Assembly: GCF_006345805.1 (NCBI RefSeq)
Contig: NC_042997.1
Coordinates: 202,306,001-202,370,000 of the forward strand
Direction: 5' to 3'
From: Octopus sinensis
Lineage: Eukaryota
Length of the DNA stretch: 64,000 bases
The notes beneath the pieces are model-generated. The model was given only the letters and a program-made list of their open reading frames with translations. It was not told where the DNA came from and did not search any database. Of the stretch, positions 18,670-63,372 are shown one piece after another. The stretch's first letter is position 1; each line of letters begins with the position of its first letter. The translations under genes were made by a program, and so were the position numbers.

Positions 18670-19510
18670 GTGATTAAAGATATGAAGAGTGGAAAAGCCC
18701 CTGGCCCTTCAGGAATCATCGCTGAGATGCTTAAAATATCTGGTGGTGGTGGTGGTGGTGGTGGGTTGTGGTCTAGTCACCCATATTGTAAATTAGGTGG
18801 TTCACAAAGGAGCCATACCCAATGACTGGTGTAGCAGCACTACAGTCAACCACTACAAAGGTGATGCCTTAGATAGAAATAATTACAGAGGTATCAAATT
18901 GTTGGATCAGGTGATGAAAGTTGCAGAGAGAGTCATAGCCCAACTAATTAGGGAGAGAGTTAGTTTAGATAAGATGCAGTTTGGTTTTGTGCCAGGGAGA
19001 AGCACCACTGATGCTATATTTCAGGTAAGACAACTGCAGGAGAAATACCTAGCCAAAGATAAACTTCTGTACTTGGCTTTTGTTGACATGGAGAAAGCTT
19101 TTGACAGGGCTCCCCAATCCCTTATCTGGTGGTCAGTGCAGAAACTAAGGATAAATGAGTGATTGGTGAGAACTGTACAATCCTTGTACAGGGACACTAC
19201 CAGTAAGGTGATGGTTGGCAACGGGTAGAGTAAAAAATTCAGGGTACAAGTAGGGGTTCACCAAGGATCAATCCTCAGCTCCTCTTGTTCATCATAGTCC
19301 TCCAGGCAATGGCAGAGGAATTTAAAACTGGCTACCCCTCGGAACTCCTCTCTATGCTATAAGACCTCGCTCTTATAGCTGAATCACTACCAGAACTAGA
19401 GAAGTTCCAGGTATGGCAGCAAGGTCTAGAATTGAAGGGCCTTGGAGTTAACCTAGCCAAAACCAAAGTCTTAGTATTTAGGAAGGCAGACAAATCGCAA
19501 ATCCCATGGA
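18670..19510 (+). mobile_element. RTE-clade LINE reverse transcriptase fragment (pseudogene)
   Basis: KSGKAPGPSGI, NYRGIKLL, QFGFVPGRSTTDAIF, LAFVDMEKAFD, GVHQGSILS and a frameshifted YADD region. Stops and frameshifts present, plus a (GGT)n expansion. Confidence 0.92.
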
Positions 19511-20460: not shown

Positions 20461-21665
20461 TGATCAAATTATCTCTACTGTTTTATTTCATCTTATTCCT
20501 TTAGATCTTATCAGCCTTTCAGAAACATAAAAAAAAAAAAAGATGTAGTGCTGATTATTTTTTTAAATGTTTATAAATATGTAGAGAATAAAACAAAATA
20601 ATTGTTTACATTTCCTCCATTGCTGAATACATTTTTACTTGATTAATTAAATATATCACAATCAAATGCAACTAAGTTTCCAGAATTTGTTCAATAAATT
20701 TCAGCCGTTAAAATTAGTTTGCTCAATAATACAGACTAATATGAGTTATTGAAGGGTGCAAATCTTTTCATTTAAGTCCTTTGTTGAATGTAATGGAATT
20801 TGCTGGAGTGTACATAGATGTTCTGTTGAAGATCTACATACACTTCCCAAACAGATCTGTGGAAAAAAAATTCTAGAGTTCCTTAAGATAAGGTTTCTTT
20901 TACTTAGATTTAATAAAACTGATTTCCATTCTCCATTTTTTTTCTCCTCATGAAACAGATAAGCTATCATGTTTAAATTAACGATATGTATTAATTTTAT
21001 AATTATGGAATGATAGTGCTAAGTAATGATGTATATAAATACAAACTTGCTACCACTTCAAATATGTGTGAGGAATATCTGAGCCTATTAGAAAGTCATT
21101 TGCTCTATTTTGCCATAGAGAAAATTTCTCACTTTAAACAAATAGGGTAAATGCACCAAGTCAGTTCACAGCGCCCCCTAACCAGACTGTTGGATTTATG
21201 CATGTCAGAGTAGTTATCTCCTCTTCAACCACAGAGACCAGAAATGCTGCATGAGAGACAAGTCCCTCTTATGATACTTCCATCGTTGACAGGTTGTGCT
21301 ATTCAGCAGTTCACTGCTAATAAAATATGAGATGACAGCACTAATTTATAATTATATAAACGATGCTTTTACTCTATTGAAACAGATGTAGGGAACAATT
21401 ATATTATGAATCACCTGTGAAATTTCAGCCATTTTTGCTAGTGATGGCTATAGATTTTGCGGTTCATAAGAGCTAAGATAATCTAAGCATTGATTTGTTT
21501 CCAAGTATAAAAACTTATACAAAAATTAAAGTATTTTTCTCAAATTTTAACAGTTACCATGTATAATTAACTCCGAAACCTTTTTTACATAAATCATATA
21601 TATATATATATATATATACAAATTGAGATAGGGGTTGTGTATATATATATATATATATATATATA

Positions 21666-22115
21666 GGTGCATGGCTATATACACTTATATGTATGTGTAT
21701 ATTATATATTATGTATATGTACCCATTCTTGTATGGGTGTACCTTCTCTGATATTCATATTTAGATTGTACTTTATAATCTCTGAAGAGGCCTTGGGATA
21801 TATTTGTAAGTGTTTCATTTATAACCACATATTAACTTATCACACCTGGCTAATATGAGCATAATGAGATACTCATATCTACATGGCTGAAACAGCTGTA
21901 AGATATAGTTTATATTTATATTTATTTATACCTATTGTACTTATTGTATCATATTACTCATTGATGTGCATTGTTTTGTTCTGTACTATTATGTTTTGAC
22001 CTTGATGTTCATATGTAGTTGGTTAATAAATTATGTGAATGGGTATTATCTGGTAGTTGATTATTGATTAACGTGTGTTTCTCCATTTTCTTATTTTGTA
22101 TATTTATATATATAA
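21666..22115 (+). mobile_element. Hammerhead-bearing short element inserted in (TA)n, probable Penelope-like solo pLTR
   Basis: About 450-bp block bounded on both sides by (TA)n runs and containing the 21778-21904 hammerhead motif. Confidence 0.5.
21778..21904 (+). ncRNA. Type I hammerhead ribozyme motif with long stem II insert
   Basis: AUCU-CUGAAGA-GGCC..(about 90 nt)..GGCU-GAAA-CAGCUG-UA|AGAU. Stem I AUCU/AGAU, palindromic stem III ACAGCUGU, predicted cleavage after GUA at 21900. Confidence 0.75.
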
Positions 22116-22141
22116 TTTGAACTTTTAATTTATCGTTTTAG

Positions 22142-22839
22142 GGTACTTCATGTTCAGTGTTGGATATGTCTACCTCTGTCAAGGAACATTTGTGAATGAT
22201 GGCAATGTAACCAGCCAGAATAAATCATTGGTAAACCACAGTATGTTCGACGACCTAAGTACTGCATCTTTCGATTCTGAAATAATAATTAGTAGTACTC
22301 ACTTACCTGGTGCTGCAGTACTGCAATCAACAGGTAGAATGAAAAAGCCTCCCCTAACTTCCACTACTGCTGCTACTAATAAGGGCCAAAATGTAGGCAA
22401 TTCAGAATCCATAACTACAGCATCTGTATCTTCACTATCATCGGCCAATCCAGCAATAATCCGTTCCCCTATTTTGGAAAATGTTAATGAAGCACAATTA
22501 AAAAGTTTGTCTAGTAAAGATCAGTTTAACCTAAAAAAGGCCCCAGTTTATAAGATTCCTGAATTACCTCATAGCCACTGGATTTCTGGCCCAGCAAATC
22601 ACACAGTTATACATCGAGTTAAAAAAGATACATGGCCTCAGTCACTGAAAACCTGCACCCCACCTGGAACACCAATATTGGCTATTCACCAGTCAGTACC
22701 AGAAGACACACCCAAGGACAGCACCTTGCCTGAATGGAGTGAGCAATTAAAATCATTGTGTGCTGATAATGAAGAAAGGATTTATTTAATCCTAGAACAG
22801 GCTCCTGCAAACCCTTATTTTGGTATTGACAAAGTTACG
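22142..22839 (+). CDS. Cadherin-family gene, first visible coding exon (signal-peptide tail, Ser/Thr-rich pro-region, N-terminal part of EC1)
   Basis: Acceptor ttttAG at 22140-22141 and donor ACG|GTAAGT at 22840. Open frame (x)YFMFSVGYVYLCQG...HRVKKDTWPQSLKTCTPPG...SVPEDTP...NPYFGIDKVT carries the cadherin VPEDxP and YFxIDxxT motifs. The ORF-track tail after VT is intron read-through. The start codon is either ATG 22150 or in an unlocated upstream exon (phase 1). Confidence 0.85.
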
Positions 22840-27858: not shown

Positions 27859-27957
27859 GGTGCATTGAAGGTTATTCGCAGTCTTGACGAGATTGATAGT
27901 CCTGAAGACCATGTCCTTGTTATAAATGTGAGGTGTGGGAATAGCATTACTATCGTG
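27859..27957 (+). CDS. Cadherin-family gene, 99-bp exon (EC1 C-terminal half)
   Basis: Long polypyrimidine tract with AG at 27857-27858 and donor GTG|GTAAGT at 27958; phase 0/0. Encodes GALKVIRSLDEIDSPEDHVLVINVRCGNSITIV, completing the IDxxTGxLxxxxxLD motif begun in the previous exon. Not in the ORF track. Confidence 0.85.
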
Positions 27958-28461
27958 GTAAGTATACCAACATTACCATTTTCCAAACTACCTGGTACAT
28001 TATCTATCAATCTCAGAACGGTGAAAGTTTAACACAACAAGATTTGATCCCAGAACACAGAGAACTGGAGCAAATACTGCCAAGCATTTTATCCAATGTC
28101 CCAAAAAATTCTACCATTCTCTGCTGCTATAAATTTTTGTCAAGATCTATTAGCTATAACTGCTATAGCAAGCATTTAAAAGTATATATTCTTGATTTGT
28201 TTTCAGTATAAATTTATAAAATACACTGAATTAATTTTATTTTATTTAATTTATGGTAGTTCATAGATATTGTCATCTTCATTGCTATCATGTATAATTT
28301 TAGTATGAAAATCCACATTGCTCCAGTCCACTCAGCTGTGAATGGGTGAGTCTTCACTGATCTGGTTCTGTATAAGGGGACTGTTGTGACCTCGGTCACT
28401 TACATGCTTTTCAAATTGGGTTACCAGCCCACTGAGTCCTTGGACTTGAAATAGTGTCCAA

Positions 28462-29606
28462 CACTGGGGTCTGTGGAAAGCTGCTGCAATGGATAAATTG
28501 TTTCCTGATGAACAGAACCCAACATGTTGTGGTTGAGGGAGTCTGATCTAATTCAGCCACAGTCAGTAGTGGTGTCCCACAAAGTACTGTGTTGGGCCCA
28601 CTCTTCCTTATCTACATCAGTGACACAGACATCATCAAACACTGTACACTGAAAATCTTTGCAGCTGATTCCAAGCTCCAGAAGGCCAGAAACGGTATGG
28701 GAAACCAACATGCTTTCAGTCGGATCTGTTTGCTGTTGTCCAATGAAGACAAGTTCAATTTGATCCAATTTGGAAAAGAGGATGCTCTGAAACTACCATG
28801 TGCCCTTCCTTCGAGTGACTCCCTAGTGTCAGCCAACAATACCAGAGACCTTGGAGTAATTGTTGATAACAATCTAAGCTGGAGTTCCCATGCAAACAGT
28901 AAGGTTGACTTGGCCTGCAAGATGTGCTCCTGGATTCTGAGAAATTTCTGGTCTGGAGATGCTCACACCATCATCCTTCTCTGCTCTATTTTTGCTTGAC
29001 CTCACCTTGAATACTGTTGCCCACTGTGGTTTCCCCACACAAAGCAAAGCATTATGAAAGTGGAAGCATTCCAGAGGTCAATAACAAGAAAGATAGATGG
29101 TATGACAGGCATTGACTACTGGGGTTGACTAAAAAAAATCAATCTCTACTCTCTCCAATGCCACCATGAGCACTATATCATGTGTATGATGTGGAAAATA
29201 TTCCATCAATATTGCACAAATGATGTTGGTACCAGTTTTAAAATCCACCCAAGACTTGGCCTCCATGCTATCCACCCACTACAAAACTCAATCTCAAGAC
29301 ACATAACAACATTGTGACACAACTACTTTACCTCAGCCAGTCTGGTTCTATTTAATATTATACCAAAAACATCAAAACATAAAACAGATCCCATAAAATT
29401 CAAAAGTTCACAGGACAAATTTTCTCAAAAAAATCCCTGACCAACCTCCTTCACCCAGATGTCTCCAACAATAACTTTTTACTAGAGTGATCCATGGTGC
29501 CCGATATATGACTGAGGTGTGAATGATGATCTAAAAGACTTCACCAAGTGGTGCTATTAAGTTAGACATGGCCTGGGCCTCTATACTGGCCGAAACCTAT
29601 CTAAGT
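28462..29606 (+). mobile_element. 5'-truncated CR1/L2-group LINE (RT core to 3' end)
   Basis: SGVPQSTVLGPLFLIYISD, KIFAADSKL, RDLGVIVDNNLSW, PHLEYCCPLW...QRSITRKI; stops and frameshifts present. Confidence 0.9.
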
Positions 29607-51661: not shown

Positions 51662-51842
51662 CTGACCTTGAGTATTAAAAGAATCAATCGTTACGCACCT
51701 GTATTCACCCAAGACAACTATCTGTTTATTACGCGACGTAATGTTACCGTTGGCAGCTTTGTTGGACAAGTCAGTGCTTTCGATCAAGATGTTGGCCCCA
51801 ATGGTCACATACACATGTACAGGATTTATGGTGGCAATGATG
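51662..51842 (+). CDS. Cadherin-family gene, 181-bp exon (EC1-EC2 linker and first half of EC2)
   Basis: Polypyrimidine tract with AG at 51660-51661 and donor GATG|GTAAGC at 51843; phase 0/1. Encodes LTLSIKRINRYAPVFTQDNYLFITRRNVTVGSFVGQVSAFDQDVGPNGHIHMYRIYGGND, with APxF and VxAxDxDxGxNG cadherin motifs. The gene continues beyond what I could trace. Confidence 0.92.
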
Positions 51843-51893
51843 GTAAGCAAACTATTATTTACAGCTATTACTAGCATATATAGATATATATTG

Positions 51894-52660: not shown

Positions 52661-52769
52661 AATTATGGTCCGCAGTAACAAGAGACTGGCTAGACCAAAA
52701 TAGAAATATTAAGTTCTGCTAGAGTATTGAGTACTTCCTCTTCTGGCAGTTTACACTAAATGTGTGGAT

Positions 52770-52792
52770 GTGTAAATATACATATGTATATA

Positions 52793-52835
<43 letters not shown>

Positions 52836-52870
52836 GTATATATATATATATATATATATCTATATATATG

Positions 52871-52939
<69 letters not shown>

Positions 52940-52970
52940 GTAAATATATATTATATTATATATATATATG

Positions 52971-53031
<61 letters not shown>

Positions 53032-53038
53032 TATATGT

Positions 53039-53071
<33 letters not shown>

Positions 53072-53219
53072 GTAAATATATATATATATTAATATATATA
53101 TATAATGTAAATATATATTATATATATATATATATATATATGTAAATATATATAATATATATATATATATATATAATGTAAATATATAAATATATATATA
53201 TTATATATATTATATGTAA

Positions 53220-53259
<40 letters not shown>

Positions 53260-53289
53260 TATATATATTATATATATTATATATATATA

Positions 53290-53379
<90 letters not shown>

Positions 53380-53723
53380 AGTAAATGGTGGGGTTGTGTT
53401 AACCGCACATGGAGAAATGATAGGAGAGGAAAAATTATAATAAGGCAGAATGCTAAATTGAAAGTAAATTTTAATAACCCATTTTTATTAAAATTACTTT
53501 CAATTTAGCATTCTGCCTTATTATAATTTTTCCTCTCCTATATATATATATATATATAGGAGAGGAAAAATTATAATAAGGCAGAATGCTAAATTGAAAG
53601 TAAATTTTAATAAAAATGGGTTATTAAAATTTACTTTCAATTTAGCATTCTGCCTTATTATAATTTTTCCTCTCCTATCATTTCTCCACGTGCGGTTAAC
53701 ACAACCCCACCATTTACTGACTT

Positions 53724-53785
<62 letters not shown>

Positions 53786-54013
53786 TATATATATATTTAT
53801 ATATATATTTATATATATATATTTATATATTTATTATATATTTATTATATATATATATATTTATATATATATTTATATATTTATTATATATTTATATATA
53901 TTTATTTATATAATATATATTTATATTATATATTATATTATATATATAGATTTATATATATTATATTATATATATATTTATATATATATATATATTTATA
54001 TATATATTATTCT

Positions 54014-54046
<33 letters not shown>

Positions 54047-54139
54047 ATTTATATATATATATATTATTTATATATATATATTTATATATATATATATTAT
54101 ATATTATATATTTATATATATATAATTTATATATATATA

Positions 54140-54186
<47 letters not shown>

Positions 54187-54319
54187 ATATTATATATATA
54201 TATTTATATATATAATATTTATAGATATATTATATTTACATATATATATATTACTATATATATATTTACATATATATATATTTACATATATATATATATT
54301 TACATATATATATTACATG

Positions 54320-54350
<31 letters not shown>

Positions 54351-54434
54351 ATATTTACATATATATATTTTAATATTATATATATATATATATATTTATA
54401 TATTTATATATACATATTATATTATATATTATAT

Positions 54435-54468
<34 letters not shown>

Positions 54469-54508
54469 ATATTATATATTTATATATTATATATATATAT
54501 ATATATAA
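52770..54508. repeat. About 1.7-kb imperfect (TA)n tract containing a nested palindrome
   Basis: Seen directly. Confidence 0.95.
53377..53721. repeat. Nested inverted repeat (345-bp palindrome whose arms are themselves hairpins)
   Basis: A 57-bp unit at 53421-53477, 53485-53540, 53557-53613 and 53621-53677 in alternating orientation; centre is (TA)10 at 53539-53558. Confidence 0.95.
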
Positions 54509-54556
54509 AAACCAAATCAAGATAGAAAATGCTAAAATAATTTTATAAAGAACATT

Positions 54557-62301: not shown

Positions 62302-62805
62302 ACATCATCATCATTGTTCCACCGTGGTCGAGACAATGGAATTTACTATGTTATGCCAGACTTCACGGTCCATCATAGCATTACAGAGGTCCTGTTGCTG
62401 GATGCCTGTATCCCTGGAGATTACATCAGGGTAGGAGAGTGTGTGCCCTCTGGTATCGCGAGCAGATGGCTTCCAGAGGAGAAAAGTAGAAATTACCTCG
62501 TTTTCAGCTCTAAAACAATGTCCAGCAAACTGGACTCTTCTACTTTTCACAAGAAATGATACAGGTGGTAATTTCCCATATATTTGTACTTTGGGTGGAT
62601 GACGCTTCCACGAGAGATTTTGAGCTCTCATATGGAGGCGAGTGTAAATTCCATCCAACCACCATTCAAGCTTCTTTGATAACATCCAGGTTTCTGAGCC
62701 ATATAGTAGAATTGGTTCGACTGTGGCTTTGAAGATTTTAAGTTTGAAATCTCTACTTAGATTTGATGACCAGATCTTATGCATATCATTACAGGCTGAC
62801 CAGTA
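62302..62805 (-). mobile_element. 5'-truncated RTE-like LINE with open C-terminal ORF and (TGA)n tail
   Basis: KIWSSNLSRDFKLKIFKATVEPILLYGSETW...RRVQFAGHCFR...AMMDREVW; the stop codon runs directly into ATG/TGA repeats. Confidence 0.9.
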
Positions 62806-63372
62806 ACCACAATCAGCATGCACCCTGCAATGTTACCTAAGAATCTCTGTCTGCTATTACCTTGTCCACTGCTTGTAGACATTCTCCAGCAAACCTGGTG
62901 TGTTGTATAAGAACAATAATGATAATGGTGATGATGATGACACTCACTGACAATGATGAAAATAATGCAACTGCTGCTACTGATGGTAATGATGTTGAGG
63001 ATTATGATGATGATGCTGACATTGAAATAAATATATTTAAACTACTGTCATTAACAATGCTCAGAAATCATTGTTGAATCAACTCCACTGAAAACATTAC
63101 AAAATACATAAATACATTTATTCATAAATTGCATTGAAATATTTAAATTGAATCAATTCTTTGCTACACATTTTTAACGACGTCAGGAAAATGACAAATG
63201 AAAGAATGTCAACCACCTCGTTATATAATATGCAAATGAGAGTAATTCTAATTTTCCCTCGTTTGTTTAGACTTGGTTGAATAAAAAGCTATTGGCAGTA
63301 ATGAAAACTGTTGTCTTAGAATATTATTGGGATAAACGGAGAAAACAAAGTTGAATGAAAGAAAGGACAGTA

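Follow-up and report, generated by a model that had tools for sequence, protein, structure and literature searches.

The window, by which we mean the whole 64,000-nt stretch of Octopus sinensis DNA analysed here (NC_042997.1, 202,306,001 to 202,370,000), contains part of a cadherin gene on its plus strand. The gene product, P0001, has 2017 amino acids and 11 Pfam cadherin stretches; it was returned by a search of representatives, and no homolog of the exon was found among longer proteins. The exon at 22142-22839 encodes residues 33-265 of P0001, and its acceptor AG at 22140-22141 closes an intron of 57,484 nt. Two small exons outside the window, ~40.5 and ~35.4 kb 5′ of its start, encode residues 1-32, and alignment with P0001 places the next two exons at 27859-27966 (residues 266-298) and 51662-51850 (residues 299-361). 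A long Ser/Thr-rich stretch of the cadherin (22144-22660), with a basic RVKK motif at its end, precedes the first repeat and is possibly a cleaved prodomain; only two relatives were found among 1.84 billion representatives. LINE-like reverse-transcriptase fragments are present in cadherin introns at 18797-19159 (RVT_1, E = 2.8e-10), 28547-28999, and 62311-62832, and a degenerate TA repeat of ~1.9 kb (52668-54538) encloses a 98% inverted repeat of 169 nt with a 107-nt spacer (53327-53771).

Close to the 3′ end of the long intron we found a complete type I hammerhead core (21778-21904, plus strand), comprising CUGANGA, GAAA, NUH, and three helices, with an open-ended stem I. Stem I has four base pairs (AUCU, 21778-21781, with AGAU, 21901-21904), the core segments CUGAAGA and GAAA occupy 21782-21788 and 21889-21892, and the base of stem II is formed by GGCC (21789-21792) and GGCU (21885-21888). 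Cleavage is predicted after the GUA triplet, between 21900 and 21901, which is 241 nt 5′ of the exon start at 22142. The palindrome ACAGCUGU (21892-21899) provides a stem III of 2 bp in a monomer and of 8 bp (−11.1 kcal/mol) in a dimer. Domain II (21789-21888) is 100 nt long and is predicted to form an interrupted rod, within which lies a subfamily-specific, donor-like GTAAGT hexamer (21806-21811). A competing "off" hairpin is predicted at 21875-21906 (AUAUCU..GGCUG with CAGC..AGAUAU); it would sequester GAAA and the 3′ strands of stems I and II.

An initial annotation, made from the letters of the sequence, had described the core, stem I, the base of stem II, and a self-complementary stem III, all of which are present, and its placement of the motif on the cadherin sense strand ahead of the acceptor is borne out by the sequence and by homology to P0001. 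The inner hairpin that it drew within the insert (AUAUGAG/CUCAUAU) fares worse: its predicted pair probability is ~0.002, against 0.54-0.93 for UUUCAUU (21813-21819) with AAUGAGA (21863-21869).

A relaxed hammerhead descriptor matches the window once. At least one match arises in two of 60 windows resampled from a first-order Markov model, and in none of the 60 if the 8-nt palindrome is also required. The window has no match to Rfam at the gathering score, a miss likely caused by the 100-nt domain II, and none to the short-loop hammerhead pattern. The 161-nt stretch around the motif folds no better than shuffled sequences (z = −1.37). As for the contact between loops I and II that marks fast natural hammerheads, the motif has no conserved short loop II, and stem I in the family is 2-4 bp long.

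The motif lies in a host element, as the initial annotation had proposed, and this element is a repeat. Positions 21665-22101 (437 nt, plus strand) are a 5′-truncated sense copy of the 3′ end, a part of the pseudo-LTR, of what appears to be a Hydra-type Penelope-like element (PLE). Alignment of family copies places its proximal 3′ termination site at the start of a (TA)n run at 22102-22113. The left outer end of the insertion is another (TA)n run (21594-21616), likely the target microsatellite, family copies typically ending in (TA)n. Adjoining it, on the minus strand, is a 23-nt inverted piece (21617-21639) of the element's distal 3′ end, the second termination site, which matches L012 at ~1995-2020 in reverse; inverted 5′-truncated copies are typical of PLE insertions. 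The host element had been said to stop about 25 nt from the splice site; it does end near the acceptor, the exact distance being 28-40 nt before the exon, according to whether the end of the (TA)n run (~22113) or of the element itself (22101) is taken. Measured against 27 close copies, with two near-duplicate loci excluded, the window copy has five private differences in 437 nt; private variants lie at 21932, 21994, 22072, and 22077. With so few differences, the copy is young.

This repeat is abundant. A 371-nt query around the motif gave 1978 first-look candidates in the genome, and the 40 of these that were scored share 90%-100% identity with it, long insert included. Thirty of the 40 align over 21665-22101; most end in TA repeats, and three carry a tail of ~165 nt beyond the proximal end. 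An exact pattern for the long domain II, with a spacer of 82-112 nt, matches 169 genomic sites with A at position N7 and 361 with C or U (530 in all), and the reversed control pattern matches none. Within 264 kb around the locus, no second hammerhead copy was found. The motif is therefore a "lone copy," as first described, in its neighborhood but not in the genome. Non-LTR retrozymes consist of at least two tandem units, each with a hammerhead, and here there is a single copy in 264 kb. A domesticated intronic ribozyme would be single-copy or conserved at its locus; this motif has 530 exact copies and lies in a repeat copy with five private differences in 437 nt.

Stepwise upstream walking from the repeat by genome searches reached a locus, L118, whose minus strand carries, in order, a terminal-repeat/tail part, an ORF, a 3′ region, and another repeat with the ribozyme; a truncated copy in inverted orientation adjoins these. 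The ORF starts with MEKILINSS and contains RWK, DKT, and reverse-transcriptase (RT) motifs, and the hammerhead sits in the pseudo-LTR in sense to it. Upstream of the same 3′ region, three further loci (L112, L114, and L116) encode a C-terminal endonuclease end with CxCx5C, VVY..YIG, CxxC, and CxH, for which the Pfam GIY-YIG match (E = 0.0067) is below the cut-off. The translations of L114, L116, and L129 show the CxCx5C linker, lack CCHH between GIY and YIG, and have CxxC and CxH downstream. Pieces of L112, L114, L116, and L118 match successive parts of a single 803-aa homolog, linking RT and then GIY-YIG to the repeat; this order is pieced together from several loci, every copy of the element that we saw being partial or broken. 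Of 30 loci with an ORF start, 15 have RWK and 17 have DKT. Pfam searches gave no match for the RT part of the element or for an endonuclease piece of another family, and a PDB search with the 803-aa homolog also gave none.

The family shows the pseudo-LTR arrangement, 5′ truncation, adjacent inverted copy, and optional tail of PLEs. The TA-repeat ends of most of the 30 copies correspond to the (TA)n insertion of the Hydra clade, which is defined by RWK/DKT, CxCx5C, and CxxC/CxH features (Craig et al. 2021, PMC8557442). The host element thus appears to be a Penelope-like retroelement with Hydra-clade features, a placement made from motifs rather than from a tree. Pieces of the element have also been amplified within tandem arrays of ankyrin-repeat genes (L089-L099; contigs C9539 and C11013). 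On the minus strand of L111 (oriented 7022-4780), a different broken PLE ORF (VINLS..KGLKF, DKG, and GIY-YIG with cysteines) adjoins a copy of the hammerhead family; by its motifs this ORF looks Neptune-like.

Among subfamilies, domain II varies from 95 to 114 nt, and in the 35 members folded it is predicted to be mostly an interrupted rod. The ~100-nt insert is a family trait, not a peculiarity of the locus. Over the spacers scanned (3-33, 34-64, and 82-112 nt), long forms outnumber short ones by 530 to 5, with one site in the shortest class and four in the middle one. These short-spacer copies look like deletions and not like spliced genomic copies. The sole copy with a 3-33-nt spacer (L199, G000:C11:57243666-57243709) seems to derive from a deletion between TGAG repeats and would make a natural control for the rod.

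The fetched loci contain six more hammerhead-like motifs, which differ in their palindromes (ACGATCGT, ACACGTGT, ACATATGT, and ACAATTGT) and have rod-like domains of 53-60 nt: at L032 (401, minus), L040 (1987, minus), L117 (4316, plus, and 4255, minus), L175 (2257, minus), and L185 (2510, plus). Those in L040 and L117 adjoin Hydra-type endonuclease fragments. Because of these six, a long domain II can be said to recur in this genome.

We drew a structure by hand on an alignment of 33 members, in which the core columns are fixed by the search pattern and the structure comes from the same sequences. Paired cells amount to 81.6%, compared with 79.6% in shuffles (0/500) and 33%-40% when the structure is slid, and there are seven double-sided pair changes compared with 8.6 in shuffles (475/500); support for the rod from covariation is modest. 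RNAalifold, run on the plain 33-member alignment, did not recover the hammerhead fold and returned two short hairpins, one of which is the off hairpin. To reduce circularity, we turned to loci retrieved with non-ribozyme parts of the element, which gave 49 distinct copies. The share of the majority letter in these unselected copies is 0.963 in the core, 0.976 in the palindrome, 0.967 in stem I, 0.946 at the base of stem II, and 0.863 in the rest of domain II. The core is intact in 30 of the 49 and damaged in 19.

These figures bear on whether the long insert has killed the ribozyme throughout the family, leaving the core as a relic. A relic would agree with the stem III probability of <0.001 predicted for the monomer, and with a stem I of 2-4 bp whose outer pairs are broken in 12-20 of the 33 members. 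However, unselected copies preserve the core and the palindrome better than the rod, and N7, the free position of the core, varies among subfamilies (A, C, and U). The preponderance of long over short forms and the recurrence of a long domain II in unrelated hammerheads of the genome also count against such decay, which we consider unlikely.

Folding predictions for the window copy place the active monomer fold 7.2 kcal/mol above the minimum free energy (MFE) structure. The off hairpin has a probability of 0.51-0.99 in five contexts for the copy's subfamily, and of 0.90-0.99 in three out of three subfamily members; it is dominant in seven of 33 family members, and stem II is formed in 24 of 33. 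A dimer joined through ACAGCUGU comes to approximately −55.5 kcal/mol, against −56.4 kcal/mol for two MFE monomers, as a rough sum of parts. By these predictions the window copy would adopt an inactive hairpin and need a dimer partner, and the suggestion in the initial annotation that it may be slow and depend on a partner in trans gains support from this predicted fold. Among published PLE hammerheads, single min-HHRs are inactive and dimers cut weakly (PMC4209133).

Transcripts of the full element that carry two terminal repeats would bring two motifs together through the palindrome; the paired palindromes would complete stem III, and the RNA would then be cut after GUA. The element's protein probably assists, by analogy with the anole PLE, whose hammerhead cuts only with protein and at whose site no RNA-seq reads end (PMC11167929). 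The ~100-nt rod would lengthen stem II without touching the core, and the long domain may be tolerated because it extends away from the core. Of possible jobs for the rod, protein binding or a folding role seems likeliest. It is a long shot that the rod serves the element protein for docking or as a switch, with intronic sense copies, the window copy among them, staying inert as long as the element is not expressed and cutting host pre-mRNAs in trans once it is; if so, hundreds of such copies would make up a transposon-activity-dependent brake on genes such as cadherin.

In contigs from four out of four RNA runs, the upstream exon is joined to 22142, with no other 5′ join, and loose ends are limited to the upstream exon on the 5′ side and the next exon on the 3′ side. 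The runs come from at most four studies and were taken as RNA by guess, which the exon joining fits; contigs drop rare forms, and partial cleavage is invisible in them. These data show that normal cadherin mRNA is made despite the intronic motif. The initial annotation had raised the possibility that cleavage cuts the pre-mRNA or creates a new 5′ end just ahead of the ATG at 22150, for which we find no support, given normal splicing in all four runs and the predicted off hairpin. That ATG is Met36 of P0001, within a hydrophobic N-terminal stretch. A new start there is unsupported because the cut product would be uncapped, six ATGs (21964, 21991, 22005, 22013, 22033, and 22039) lie between the cut site and 22150, and Met36 is internal.

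Cleavage might still occur in trans at times when the element is active, if family transcripts or the element's protein paired with the motif through the palindrome, cut the pre-mRNA of the cadherin 241 nt 5′ of the acceptor, and lowered expression in some cells. The sense orientation, intact core, and 8-bp palindromic duplex (−11.1 kcal/mol) would allow it, at least 530 potential partners exist in the genome, and protein-assisted cutting is described for another PLE (PMC11167929). We nevertheless regard it as very unlikely: the off hairpin dominates in all three members of the copy's subfamily (P = 0.90-0.99), and spliced mRNA is seen in all four runs. Moreover, the acceptor 241 nt downstream is transcribed within seconds. 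Introns with slow hammerheads are still spliced, and a fast HDV ribozyme blocks splicing, according to work cited in PMC2995048. With no partner in cis and the off hairpin of its subfamily, the motif would cut cadherin pre-mRNA rarely and more slowly than splicing.

The GTAAGT hexamer at 21806 invites another interpretation, in which the terminal repeat acts as a promoter and the hexamer is joined by splicing to the acceptor of the cadherin exon; the transcript would then have an alternative first exon, be translated from Met36, and lack the cut site. The hexamer is a perfect donor that precedes the acceptor by 336 nt, and in Penelope and Chlamys the PLE terminal repeats contain promoters and 5′ introns. 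However, contigs of the four runs show no use of the hexamer, and the sole 5′ loose end in each is the normal upstream exon. GTRAGT is found in 23 of 49 copies, with ATAAGT in most other subfamilies; the candidate acceptor before the element ORF is AG in some copies and AA, TT, or AT in others; and the window copy is without most of the upstream 3′ region. An alternative first exon is accordingly hard to credit. Separately, an intron starting in domain II and conserved in the family was considered and rejected, with a donor in 23 of 49 copies, a variable acceptor, and no spliced genomic copies.

If the genome is assumed to have 150,000-250,000 introns, ~4-7 of the 530 copies are expected by chance to lie in sense orientation within 300 nt of an acceptor. 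A few of the 530 copies would come to lie this close to an acceptor by chance, and the position of the motif accords with that. We are confident in reading the motif as the 3′-end hammerhead of a high-copy PLE, in a 5′-truncated copy flanked by (TA)n runs close to the end of the 57-kb cadherin intron, and as a likely inactive or very slow passenger. Membership in the repeat, the link to the RT/GIY-YIG frame, the pattern of truncation and inversion, and the normal exon joining are the observations behind this reading. Against it we count the youth of the copy and its intact core, compared with the 19 of 49 unselected copies that are damaged, although age alone can explain this. At the cadherin locus the copy is likely an ordinary retroelement passenger, with no sign of a role in the gene, and the locus itself is of little importance: retroelement fragments of this sort number in the hundreds.

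Hammerheads in amniote introns, and the split hammerhead of Clec2, exist as single copies and are conserved between species, whereas the window motif is a young repeat copy. What it shares with them is the intron position and, for Clec2, a long insertion within the motif (PMC6765202).

Closer relatives are found among PLEs. Like the Hydra-clade hammerheads of PMC8557442, the motif is a sense type I hammerhead near the 3′ end with a palindromic stem III and a (TA)n insertion, and several published ones have an ACAG-NN-CUGU-A palindromic stem III; RWK, DKT, CxCx5C, and the absence of CCHH between GIY and YIG are also shared. In contrast to the 26 Hydra rows of file S2 from that paper, where loop 2 has 3-10 nt and stem II plus loop 10-24 nt, domain II of the window family has 95-114 nt. 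The octopus element Hydra-1_Obim, as given there, has another N-terminus, another ribozyme, and a length of 2.5 kb, whereas the window family has >3 kb of 3′ noncoding sequence after the ORF. The min-HHRs of metazoan PLEs, including a Drosophila virilis Penelope variant, resemble our motif in their short helix I, long helix II, and tiny palindromic helix III, in occurring mostly as single dispersed copies from truncated elements, and in needing a dimer (Cervera and de la Pena 2014, PMC4209133). Unlike these, the window family has no extra nucleotide before stem II, its helix II continues into a ~100-nt rod, and a conserved overlap with an intron was not found in it. The hammerhead of the Anolis Poseidon element PAc likewise belongs to a PLE whose genomic copies show two 3′ termination sites and whose targets are AT-rich (PMC11167929); but there the motif overlaps the ORF start and the tail is 30-40 nt, whereas in the window family the ATG follows the motif at a considerable distance and ~165 nt separate the two ends. 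Non-LTR retrozymes are another case of animal genomes with type I hammerheads that come from PLEs (bioRxiv 10.64898/2026.07.22.740005), but the window motif is no tandem array of short units and belongs to a coding element of which a truncated part is present.

Sequence comparison suggests that the domain II rod is the new part relative to published Hydra-clade hammerheads, the second stem being ~4-10 times longer. The open-access literature on PLE and octopus hammerheads and on long stem II yielded no description of the element family or of the rod. Lunse et al. (RNA Biol 14:1499) may describe long-stem hammerhead variants. Our data indicate that PLE hammerheads can carry a stem II domain of 55-115 nt. 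Because Rfam models and short-loop descriptors miss a long domain II, counts of cephalopod ribozymes are probably too low. Subfamilies with and without the built-in off hairpin offer a panel for learning what switches PLE hammerheads on, whether a dimer, a protein, or neither.

Another pair of motifs lies farther upstream. In L154, two short-loop hammerhead-like motifs in inverted orientation, ~250 nt apart, are situated ~52,160 nt (plus) and ~52,410 nt (minus) before the window start, which places them ~12 kb 5′ of the first coding exon of the cadherin; this pair is probably another PLE remnant.
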